This document shows positions 337 to 15,160 of a DNA stretch of 25,066 bases, piece by piece. The notes under the pieces are model-generated. The model did no database searches, had not been told where the DNA came from, and was given only the letters and a program-made list of their open reading frames with translations. Where the stretch lies: the NCBI RefSeq assembly GCF_003334815.1, contig NZ_QOWO01000048.1. One strand, given 5' to 3'. The DNA is from Escherichia coli. Lineage in GTDB: Bacteria; Pseudomonadota; Gammaproteobacteria; Enterobacterales; Enterobacteriaceae. The position numbers and the translations under genes were made by a program. Each line of letters starts with the position of its first letter. Positions within the stretch are counted from its first letter, which is position 1.

Positions 337-354
337 TTGGCCGCTCCTTAATGA

Positions 355-926: not shown

Positions 927-1096
927 GCCTCAATGGCGTTATCGTTAAAGATTTAGCACCCATGTAGCCTGATTTTTATTCGATTAAGCAATGGGATGGC
1001 AACATTTGTGTCGGATGTGATAGCCAATAAGATGTTCATTCGCGCCGCCGGAGAGGGAGGCGCGGTGAGGAACTGGTCAATAATTGGAGTGCAGGT

Positions 1097-1579
1097 TTAA
1101 CGGTGGGCGTTTTTCATGATACGTGCTTTATCCACCTGCCATTCGCGCTCTTTGATATCTGAACGTTTATCGTGCTGTTTCTTACCTTTGGCGACGCCGA
1201 TTTTCACTTTGCACCAGGCATTTTTCCAGTACAGGGAGAGCGCCACTACGGTATAGCCTTCTCGATTGACGCGACCGTACAATGAGTCCAGTTCGCGCTG
1301 GTTGAGAAGTAACTTGCGGGTACGGGTAGGATCGCACACCACATGCGTGGAGGCCACGGCCATTGGCGTGATGTTAGCGCCAAACAGAAATGCCTCTCCG
1401 TCACGCAGAAGGACGTAGCTGTCGCTGATATTGGCTTTTCCTGCGCGCAGGGATTTAACTTCCCAGCCTTGCAGGGCAAGTCCCGCTTCGAACTCTTCTT
1501 CGATAAAGTATTCGTGACGGGCGCGCTTGTTAAGCGCGATGGTCGCTGAACCAGGTTTATGTGCTTTTTTCTTCGTCAT
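1097..1579 (-). CDS. smpB: SsrA-binding protein SmpB (160 aa)
   Basis: ORF translation [45 protein letters not shown]... matches SmpB; immediately upstream of ssrA in the same orientation. Confidence 0.97.
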
Positions 1580-1710
1580 AAGCGTCGTGAATCATCGGTA
1601 ATCTGAAATCGAAAACACCCCATATCAATCCTGCGGGGGACAAGGCTCTATCTTAGCATGAACCCGATGTTACCCAGCGCCGGGATAGCGTTTTTTTTAC
1701 AGCAGGATAA

Positions 1711-2187
1711 ATGATATTATTTGTTGGATTTTTGTTGATGGAAATTGTTATGCCTCAGATTAGCCGGACCGCACTGGTACCCTACAGCGCGGAGCAAATG
1801 TATCAGTTAGTGAATGACGTTCAGTCTTATCCTCAGTTTTTGCCGGGTTGTACCGGAAGTCGGATTCTGGAGTCCACTCCTGGGCAGATGACTGCGGCGG
1901 TAGATGTCTCTAAGGCTGGGATCAGCAAAACGTTTACTACCCGCAACCAGTTGACCAGTAACCAAAGTATTCTTATGAATCTGGTGGATGGGCCGTTCAA
2001 GAAATTGATTGGTGGATGGAAGTTTACGCCGCTGAGCCAGGAGGCGTGTCGTATCGAGTTTCATCTCGACTTTGAGTTTACCAATAAGTTGATTGAACTC
2101 GCCTTTGGTCGCGTGTTTAAAGAGCTGGCGGCTAATATGGTCCAGGCTTTTACGGTTCGTGCGAAAGAGGTTTACAGTGCCAGGTAA
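1711..2187 (+). CDS. ratA: SRPBCC/Coq10-like ribosome association protein RatA (PasT/YfjG), 158 aa
   Basis: ORF translation [47 protein letters not shown]... matches E. coli RatA; divergent from smpB as in K-12. Confidence 0.9.
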
Positions 2188-2467
2188 AATTGCCGTTGAG
2201 GTGGCTTATGCGCTACCTGAGAAGCAGTACCTGCAGCGAGTGACGCTGCAGGAGGGCGCGACGGTTGAAGAAGCTATTCGCGCCAGTGGCTTGCTGGAAT
2301 TGCGTACCGATATCGATTTAACTAAAAACAAAGTCGGCATTTACAGCCGTCCGGCAAAACTAAGCGATAGTGTGCATGATGGCGATCGGGTGGAGATTTA
2401 TCGCCCTCTCATTGCCGATCCGAAAGAGCTTCGCAGGCAACGAGCAGAAAAATCAGCGAATAAATAA
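2177..2467 (+). CDS. ratB: RatB (YfjF), 96 aa, RnfH/ubiquitin-like fold family
   Basis: GTG start at 2177 gives [27 protein letters not shown]...; overlaps the ratA 3' end by 11 nt. The ORF track's longer 124-aa version starts inside ratA. Confidence 0.85.
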
Positions 2468-6414: not shown

Positions 6415-7701
6415 TTACTCCGCCACACTCTCGCGCAGCGGTTTCACAGGAAAAACTTTTACCTGCTTAATCATATTGTCCTGTACGTCGAGAATATCGA
6501 TATCGTACTCGCCAATACGCACGCGGGTGCCTGCGACAGGGATCTCTTCCAGTGCCTCAAGAATGACGCCATTAACCGTGCGGGCATCATCTTCCGGTAG
6601 ATGCCAGTTAAAGGCTTTGTTGATTTCCCGCACGTTGGCGGTGCCATCGATAATCACCGAACCGTCGTTTTGCGGCGTGACCTCTTCGGCAAGTGTTGGC
6701 GACATCGACGTAGTGAAATCGCCGACAATCTCTTCCAGAATATCTTCAACCGTCACCAGCCCCTGAATGTCTCCATACTCGTTGACGACCAGGCCGACTT
6801 TCTTTTTGTTGCGCTGAAACTTTACCAACTGCGTGCTGAGCGGCGTACCTTCCGGCACAAAATAGATCTCGTCCGCGGCGCGCAGCATGGTTTCTTTGGT
6901 GAACTCTTTTTTCTCCGACATCAACCGCCAGGCTTCACGTACTCGCAGCATACTGATGGCGTCGTCCAGCGAATCACGGTAGAGCACGATGCGCCCGTGA
7001 GGTGAGTGGGAGAGTTGGCGCAGAATCGATTTCCAGTCATCGTTGATATCAATACCGATAATTTCACTGCGCGGCACCATGATGTCATCAACGGTCATTT
7101 TTTCCAGATCGAGCACCGACAGCAGCATATCCTGATTGCGACGGGAAATTTGTGAGCGTGATTCGTGCACGATAGTGCGCAACTCTTCTTTGCTCAAAGA
7201 GCCGCTAACCACGATATCGGTTTTGATACCCATCATGCGCATCAGCATACGGGTGATAGCATTCAGCAACCAGACCAGCGGCATCATCAAAATTTGCAGC
7301 GGAGCCAGCAGAAAACTACTCGGATAAGCGACTTTTTCCGGGTACAGCGCGGCAATGGTTTTCGGCAATACCTCAGCAAATACCAGTACGACAAAAGTCA
7401 GCACACCAGTCGCAATTGCCACGCCCGCATCGCCGTACAAACGCATCCCAACAATAGTGCCGAGCGCGGAGGCAAGAATATTGACCAGGTTATTGCCGAT
7501 TAACACCAGGCTTATCAGGCGGTCTGGCTTACGCAGCAATTTTTCGACGCGTTTGGCCGAGCGATTACCCTGTTTCGCCATATGTCGCAGACGATAGCGG
7601 TTGAGGGTCATCATTCCGGTTTCGGACCCGGAAAAATAGGCTGAAATGACCACCATGATGATCAGAATAATGATCAACGTAGTAGTAGAAATGTGTTCCA
7701 G
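6415..7701 (-). CDS. yfjD: CNNM/CorC-family inner membrane protein YfjD (DUF21-CBS-CorC domains), about 428 aa
   Basis: Translation ...LIIILIIMVVISAYFSGSETGMMTLNRYRLRHMAKQG... The ORF track starts at a TTG (7677, 420 aa). An AAGGAG Shine-Dalgarno sits 6 nt upstream of an in-frame CTG at 7699-7701, which would give the 428-aa length I recall for K-12. Start codon uncertain. Confidence 0.85.
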   Translation of the reverse strand: MEHISTTTLIIILIIMVVISAYFSGSETGMMTLNRYRLRHMAKQGNRSAKRVEKLLRKPDRLISLVLIGNNLVNILASALGTIVGMRLYGDAGVAIATGVLTFVVLVFAEVLPKTIAALYPEKVAYPSSFLLAPLQILMMPLVWLLNAITRMLMRMMGIKTDIVVSGSLSKEELRTIVHESRSQISRRNQDMLLSVLDLEKMTVDDIMVPRSEIIGIDINDDWKSILRQLSHSPHGRIVLYRDSLDDAISMLRVREAWRLMSEKKEFTKETMLRAADEIYFVPEGTPLSTQLVKFQRNKKKVGLVVNEYGDIQGLVTVEDILEEIVGDFTTSMSPTLAEEVTPQNDGSVIIDGTANVREINKAFNWHLPEDDARTVNGVILEALEEIPVAGTRVRIGEYDIDILDVQDNMIKQVKVFPVKPLRESVAE

Positions 7702-7721
7702 GGGAAACTCCTTTTCTGGGT

Positions 7722-8513
7722 TTAGCTGATTAACTGCTGGACAATTCGGCTGCCGAAGTAGGCCAGTGTCAGAATTACCGCGCCCGCAACGTTAAACCAG
7801 ACGACGCGGCGTCCACGCCATCCTTCATGATAATGTCCCCACAGCAGCACAATATAGACAAACCACGCCACGATAGAGAGCACAGCCTTGTCGATATTTT
7901 CCATGCTAAATAAGTTGTGCATGTAGAACAGGCCAGTGCAAAGCGTGAGCGTTAGCAGCACCACGCCAATCTGCGTGATGTGGAACATTTTACGCTCGAT
8001 ACTCATCAATGGCGGCATTTCCTGGTTAAACGCCAGCTTCTTGTTCTTCAGTTGGTAATCAATCCACGCCAGTTGCAGCGCGTACAGGGCGGCGATAATT
8101 AGCGTGGCATAGGAAAAGAGCGATAAGCCAATGTGCACCAGCATCCCAGGCGTAGCTTCCAGATGGGTGATGTATTCATTGGGCATGAAGGTTGCCAGCG
8201 CCAGGTTGATAAGCGCAAAGGCATAGACAATGGGTAGCAGCAGCCAGCCACGATTGCGAGAAGCCACAATGGTCATTACCGTACAGATCATCAAACTGAC
8301 CAATGAACCAACGTTCAGCAGGCTGAGGTTTTGTCCGCTATCACCGTCGGGCAGGATGCGGGCTTCCAGAGCGATTGCGTGGCAGACCAGCGCAATGACC
8401 GCAGAAATAATAGCCATGCGCCGCCAGCCGCCGTTTTTTTGCAGCAGACCGGGAACAATCAGCGCAAGACTGACGGAGTAGGCGACAAGCGCGAGCAGAG
8501 CAAAAACGGGCAT
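7722..8513 (-). CDS. ypjD: Inner membrane protein YpjD (CcsA/cytochrome c assembly-like family), 263 aa
   Basis: From the internal ATG at 8511-8513: MPVFALLALVAYSVSLALIVPGLLQKNGGWRRMAIISAVIALV...; multiple hydrophobic segments. The ORF track's 288-aa version extends 25 codons upstream. Confidence 0.85.
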   Translation of the reverse strand: MPVFALLALVAYSVSLALIVPGLLQKNGGWRRMAIISAVIALVCHAIALEARILPDGDSGQNLSLLNVGSLVSLMICTVMTIVASRNRGWLLLPIVYAFALINLALATFMPNEYITHLEATPGMLVHIGLSLFSYATLIIAALYALQLAWIDYQLKNKKLAFNQEMPPLMSIERKMFHITQIGVVLLTLTLCTGLFYMHNLFSMENIDKAVLSIVAWFVYIVLLWGHYHEGWRGRRVVWFNVAGAVILTLAYFGSRIVQQLIS

Positions 8514-15115: not shown

Positions 15116-15160
15116 TTCTTTCTCCTTTTTCAAAGCATAGCGGATTGTTTTCAAAGGGAG

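Follow-up and report, generated by a model that had tools for sequence, protein, structure and literature searches.

The infC gene, which encodes the initiation factor IF3, begins with AUU and is subject to IF3-dependent autoregulation. IF3 generally discriminates against non-canonical start codons (Hecht et al. preprint, discussion), and in the reporters of that study CUG reached about 1-2% of AUG, with GUG and UUG at 10-100%. There is a general tendency for weak start codons to be offset by stronger Shine-Dalgarno (SD) sequences (Belinky, Rogozin and Koonin 2017, PMC5622118). The closest described case is yfjD of Escherichia coli itself. EcoGene 3.0 (Zhou and Rudd 2013, PMC3531124) reports that its CTG start was confirmed by start-codon mutagenesis (Rudd, unpublished results): mutation of the CTG abolished yfjD expression and mutation of the TTG at codon 9 was without effect, both statements being unpublished data within a database paper. 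A literature search found no primary data behind this mutagenesis.

The window (the whole stretch of E. coli DNA analysed here, 25,066 nucleotides) carries yfjD on the minus strand, and inspection of the sequence recovered at its position every sequence feature noted in the preliminary description. We consider that yfjD is translated from the CTG at 7701..7699 into a 428-aa product beginning fMet-Glu-His-Ile-Ser-Thr-Thr-Thr, with a probability of about 0.93. The features of the region are the following.

7722..8513, minus strand: ypjD, the upstream gene (cytochrome c assembly family), with its RefSeq start.
7722..7724, minus strand: TAA stop codon of ypjD (end of the RefSeq ypjD CDS), with the SD 8 nt and the yfjD CTG 20 nt downstream of it.
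7708..7713, minus strand: SD AAGGAG, 6 bp with the 3' end of 16S rRNA, -8.2 kcal/mol.
7702..7707, minus strand: spacer TTTCCC (6 nt) between the SD and the start codon; 7 nt (extra C) in the O157:H7-type lineage.
7699..7701, minus strand: CTG initiation codon of yfjD (codon 1), decoded as fMet; RefSeq/PGAP, EcoGene 3.0 mutagenesis, orthologues.
7678..7698, minus strand: codons 2-8 (EHISTTT), N-terminal tail before transmembrane helix 1 (TM1); constraint, NF008604, CorB structures.
7675..7677, minus strand: TTG codon 9, the start in the former annotation, an ordinary internal Leu codon; orthologues, no SD.
7654..7656, minus strand: ATG codon 16, an internal Met within TM1, chosen by gene callers unable to use CTG or TTG.
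6415..7701, minus strand: complete yfjD (corB) CDS, 428 codons plus stop, encoding a CNNM/CorB-family (HlyC/CorC) transporter.

Read 5' to 3' on the minus strand, the ypjD TAA is followed by ACCCAGA and then by AAGGAG. A gap of 20 bp had been placed between the ypjD stop and the ribosome-binding site; the figure is right for the distance from the stop to the CTG, but the ribosome-binding site itself lies only 8 nt from the stop. The open yfjD frame is bounded upstream by an in-frame TAA at 7794..7792, and the first ATG, GTG or TTG beyond it is the TTG at 7677..7675. Codons 2-8 read GAA CAC ATT TCT ACT ACT ACG, and the TTG is followed by ATC ATT ATT CTG ATC ATC ATG GTG. With a CTG start the 428 codons span 6418..7701; the translation agrees with the expectation that this start adds (M)EHISTTT and gives 428 aa.

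The AAGGAG had been described as lying 6 nt upstream of the in-frame CTG, and it does. Its predicted duplex with the anti-SD (-8.2 kcal/mol) is in the top 0.9% of 20-mers on the minus strand. Among the near-cognate codons of the open stretch, the CTG is the only one with an SD at a working distance. The motif AAGGAG occurs three times in the window, on both strands together, against 9.1 +/- 2.8 expected from shuffled sequences, and this scarcity indicates that its placement at the yfjD CTG is not due to chance. The two remaining copies are found at 344..349 and 15122..15127 (minus strand). The depletion fits an avoidance of strong internal SD-like motifs. The ATT at codon 4 was also considered as a start and was rejected, its SD lying 14 nt away.

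It could be argued that the TTG at 7677..7675 is the real start of a 420-aa protein and that the upstream AAGGAG and CTG are coincidental. This TTG is the first canonical start codon of the open frame and was the start in the older K-12 annotation. However, the duplex calculated upstream of it is +2.4 kcal/mol, so that it has no SD, as had been suspected, and the EcoGene 3.0 mutagenesis cited above found its mutation to have no effect on expression. A start still further downstream, at the ATG of codon 16 (7656..7654) or the adjacent GTG, would give a product of about 413 aa and turn everything upstream into a leader. Here the duplex is +0.6 kcal/mol (ATG16/GTG17) and an SD is again lacking.

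Orthologous loci allow these candidates to be compared. A scan of species-representative genomes gave 80 Enterobacteriaceae loci, whose products share 87-100% protein identity with YfjD; 79 of them include the start region. Codon 1 is NTG in all 79 species (CTG in 36, TTG in 30, GTG in 13) and never ATG: its second and third bases (TG) are invariant and the first base alone varies. A canonical GTG or TTG, codons whose role as starts is beyond dispute, therefore stands at the aligned codon 1 in 43 of the 79 species. Upstream, AAGGA at -12 to -8 is the sole conserved block. In codons 2-8 of the same species, the first two positions hardly vary whereas the third does so freely, with a minor-allele frequency of up to 0.58, a pattern that reads as the signature of translated sequence. 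Codon 9 behaves otherwise than codon 1: in the 80 loci (79 species and one extra E. coli strain) it is CTG in 50, CTC in 11, TTG in 8, CTA in 6, CTT in 4 and TTA in 1. The alignment of orthologue N-termini that the preliminary description had proposed as a check hence yields a start-type pattern at codon 1 and the pattern of an ordinary leucine at codon 9. The distance from the ypjD stop to the start also differs among species by non-multiples of three, and within E. coli the O157-type genomes have one extra C just upstream of the CTG. Such indels and varying lengths imply that translation cannot begin upstream of the CTG.

These comparisons weigh heavily against the TTG as the real start. Only 8 of the 80 loci have TTG at this position; the others have CTN or TTA, codons from which translation cannot start efficiently. 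The seven codons upstream of this position are under protein-level constraint. We regard a TTG start as very improbable. The ATG of codon 16, in contrast to the TTG, is invariant in the 79 species, and some automated gene calls yield products of 413 or 409 aa. However, codons 2-15 are conserved as coding sequence, and invariance of Met16 is expected for a buried transmembrane residue. For CTG-bearing species, the comparative evidence locates the onset of coding at the CTG; it is compatible with a minor share of initiation at TTG9 or ATG16.

The whole-protein homology matches listed cover Enterobacteriaceae only (at least 82% identity) and do not reach Yersinia, Vibrio and similar taxa. Outgroup loci from Pasteurellaceae were reached through a PDB fragment of Haemophilus HI0107, and the start region alone was used from them, several of these assemblies being ridden with frameshifts. 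All six Pasteurellaceae-type loci carry TTG GAC AGT ATY CCC (MDSIPLST) behind an AGGA-type SD and keep the synteny of ffh, a ypjD-like gene and the CNNM gene. A Pasteurellaceae-like metagenome scaffold, L210, contains an intact corB orthologue of 429 aa (1067..2356) with a TTG start. The same scaffold also contains, at 2501-2812, a separate ORF of 103 aa with a second CorC_HlyC domain, which resembles a partial duplicate of the 3' end of corB.

The yfjD product is a 428-aa inner-membrane transporter of the CNNM/CorB family. It scores 866.7 bits against the NCBIfam equivalog NF008604 (PRK11573; cutoff 475), its residues 1-427 aligning to positions 1-427 of the 428 of the model. Pfam profiles identify CNNM (PF01595, residues 11-184, 1.2e-53), CBS (PF00571, 278-326) and CorC_HlyC (PF03471, 344-418) domains, and the protein also matches the CBS-pair structure 3HF7 (PDB). 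The CorB structures 7M1T, 7M1U and 7CFF align from YfjD residue 10 to their residues 10-11, with about 9-10 residues preceding TM1 as an N-terminal tail. Given such a CorB-type tail, a start at the TTG would leave no tail at all and a start at ATG16 would cut into TM1. The latter codon would sit inside TM1, the Pfam CNNM domain beginning at residue 11 and the structural alignments at residue 10, and translation starting there is hardly credible. The SD, the conservation pattern, the architecture of the protein and the mutagenesis cited above all led to the rejection of TTG codon 9 and ATG codon 16 as principal start; the TTG, which had been offered as the alternative start, fails in having no SD, in the lack of conservation of codon 9 and in the absence of effect of its mutation (EcoGene 3.0).

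Many automated gene calls of the orthologue are short at the N-terminus (397-423 aa; P0085, for example, has 413 aa and starts at ATG16) and one call is mis-extended to 640 aa, whereas NCBI/PGAP entries are consistently 428 aa. The short calls are likely due to the inability of the callers to use CTG. In practice, with such callers many public assemblies carry a YfjD shortened to 420 or 413 residues or even fewer.

In MG1655 (NC_000913.3), yfjD (b4461, YP_026171.3) occupies 2748774..2750060 (1287 nt) and its first codon is the same CTG. PGAP also begins the yfjD CDS at the CTG, for 428 aa, in the four other E. coli strains checked. The preliminary description preferred the CTG to the TTG for the position of the SD and the 428-aa length, a choice that is supported, but did not decide between a real atypical start and a convention of annotation; the start is real and it is also the current annotation (RefSeq, EcoGene 3.0). 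The assignment is a correct rediscovery of a start that was already annotated and was reported as confirmed in 2013. As such the core result alters nothing, both the reference annotation and EcoGene having carried the CTG start since about 2013. Concerning initiation profiling, neither the text of the Ribo-RET preprint nor the INRI-seq text mentions yfjD, and the TRAINSPOTTER N-terminomics supplements contain no hit for it. The N-terminal tryptic peptide of the protein is 35 residues long and contains TM1, which probably explains why this N-terminus is missing from proteomics.

The start was also followed within E. coli, using 30-nt megablast queries centred on codon 1, for which a match is seeded only by genomes carrying the queried codon. 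CTG was found in 5,412 of 5,426 complete E. coli genomes, 5,081 with the K-12 background and 331 with the O157-type background; the ATG, TTG and GTG versions of the query gave no match among the 5,426 in either background. The 331 complete genomes of the O157:H7-type lineage carry an extra C, which brings the SD-CTG spacer to 7 nt. The intergenic segment 7702..7721 is polymorphic in E. coli (loci L085 and L083), and both CTG and AAGGAG are unchanged in every case. In strain ChlosBP-23-1 the ypjD stop is followed by a duplicated stretch of 9 nt (CCCCAGTAA-like).

A different possibility is that initiation is dual or conditional, the CTG giving the main 428-aa form and TTG9 or ATG16 giving a shorter form under stress. 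Cleavage by MazF at the ACA at 7696..7694 would provide an example, since it would remove both the SD and the CTG. Table 1 of the MazF-regulon study (PMC5001579) lists an ACA at 17 nt from the yfjD start as a cleavage site, a distance that only fits a TTG start and so also speaks for the TTG itself, and MazF-processed yfjD mRNA was reported there as polysome-associated. The only ACA at a fitting distance is that at 7696..7694 (minus strand), which is at 17 nt from the formerly annotated TTG and falls within codons 2-3 of the CTG ORF. However, this is a single high-throughput entry for which no yfjD-specific validation was seen, TTG9 is not conserved across species, and the ATG16 form would lose part of TM1. 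Dual initiation appears improbable. A simpler reading of the entry is an inactivating cut inside the ORF, described as lying in the 5'-UTR because of the old annotation. More generally, papers based on the old TTG annotation put features of the start region in the wrong place, as with the MazF cleavage site.

With initiation at the CTG as the preferred reading, a mechanism may be outlined. The strong 6-bp SD AAGGAG, at a near-optimal spacing of 6 nt, would position the 30S subunit, and the fMet-tRNA initiator would pair with CUG despite the mismatch at the first position. The weakness of CUG would be offset in part by the strong SD and possibly also by ribosomes terminating on ypjD 20 nt upstream, and the net outcome would be low-level expression of the YfjD transporter. 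The relative sizes assumed for the SD and coupling contributions are our inference.

A scan of the minus strand found no promoter-like or terminator-like site at the ypjD-yfjD junction, which is in favour of coupling and suggests, as weak evidence, that the two genes are probably co-transcribed. In its stronger form, coupling would mean that ribosomes finishing ypjD re-initiate at the CTG and that yfjD depends on translation of ypjD more than on independent 30S binding. The gap from stop to start is mostly short (20 nt in E. coli; of the 74 measurable species, 66 have 12-30 nt), and the weak predicted pairing of the SD and CUG regions would be opened by an upstream ribosome. However, the strong conserved SD speaks for direct 30S recruitment, and the RNA fold spanning -60 to +60 about the start does not significantly exceed shuffled sequence in stability (z = -1.2). 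Moreover, four species with a gap of more than 100 nt between stop and start still keep CTG and AAGGAG, which shows that these signals can be maintained without coupling. A predominant dependence on ypjD is doubtful, but re-initiation of this kind is compatible with the CTG start and is a possible contributing mechanism.

More than 100 nt of extra GC-rich, partly palindromic-looking sequence lies between ypjD and yfjD in some Citrobacter, Raoultella and Intestinirhabdus genomes (loci L007, L022, L023 and L034, also L017 and L024), with AAGGAG and CTG kept. This extra sequence could be an inserted REP-like element. As for ypjD, its longest ORF starts at ATG 8588 (288 aa) and the RefSeq start is the internal ATG 8513 (263 aa, MPVFALL...). 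An obvious SD is lacking at both ATGs, and the ypjD start looks uncertain. The similarity of YpjD to the CcsB/cytochrome c assembly family is weak, at 34 bits where the cutoff is 187.6.

ATG is absent as the yfjD/corB start throughout the loci compared: 0 of 79 species, none of the 5,412 E. coli genomes and 0 of 6 Pasteurellaceae loci. In the metagenome collection, ATG joined to GARCAYATHTCNACNACNACNYTNATH gave no match, and the forms with C, G or T as first base matched at least 120 contigs. The SD varies with the start codon. Of the 36 species with CTG, 32 have AAGGAG; of the 43 with TTG or GTG none has it, and all 43 have the weaker AAGGAA or AAGGAC; mean SD duplex energies in the 79 species are -8.1 (CTG), -5.9 (TTG) and -6.1 (GTG) kcal/mol. 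Among the metagenome loci listed, AAGGAG is found with CTG in 28 of 29 and with other starts in 0 of 50.

Changes were mapped by parsimony on a neighbour-joining gene tree built from codons 10-400, branch lengths being ignored and taxa between Enterobacteriaceae and Pasteurellaceae left out. The start codon changed at least nine times, its first base moving among C, T and G. The CTG state and the AAGGAG state each changed eight times, and in six cases both changed on one and the same branch. The tree has 156 branches, and random placement would give such a coincidence with a P of roughly 4e-8. Its root is reconstructed as TTG without AAGGAG.

That ATG is never used suggests that low expression is kept by stabilising selection. 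We advance only tentatively, and with the odds slightly against it, the broader proposal that yfjD/corB is held on a sub-optimal start across Enterobacteriaceae and Pasteurellaceae and that ATG is selected against. If true, it would imply stabilising selection on a low and tightly set dose of a Mg2+/cation transporter, or on responsiveness to IF3, and would be at odds with the usual weak selection for maximal initiation. ATG avoidance and the co-evolution of CTG with AAGGAG may be new, as a modest addition at the level of this locus. The yfjD family also provides a clean natural example of start-codon/SD co-evolution that includes CUG and could serve to calibrate models of initiation strength.

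With respect to known systems, the result is identical to EcoGene 3.0, U00096.3 and NC_000913.3 in gene, CTG codon, length (428 aa) and rejection of TTG codon 9 as start. What is added to the EcoGene 3.0 paper is cross-species, metagenome and pan-E. coli evidence, the core claim being the same. hda resembles yfjD as a chromosomal gene of E. coli K-12 with a rare CUG initiation codon, but the gene and its protein are unrelated to yfjD. The parallel with infC lies in a conserved sub-optimal start discriminated against by IF3, by analogy with which yfjD output could respond to the IF3 level; however, infC keeps one fixed unusual codon whereas that of the yfjD family varies between CTG, TTG and GTG. 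Finally, as in Belinky et al. 2017 (PMC5622118), a weaker start is accompanied by a strengthened SD, here CTG with AAGGAG. That study concerned AUG/GUG/UUG switches genome-wide, whereas yfjD is one family that includes CUG and never AUG. It fits the published SD compensation and is a clear single-family illustration of it, CUG included, rather than a new principle.
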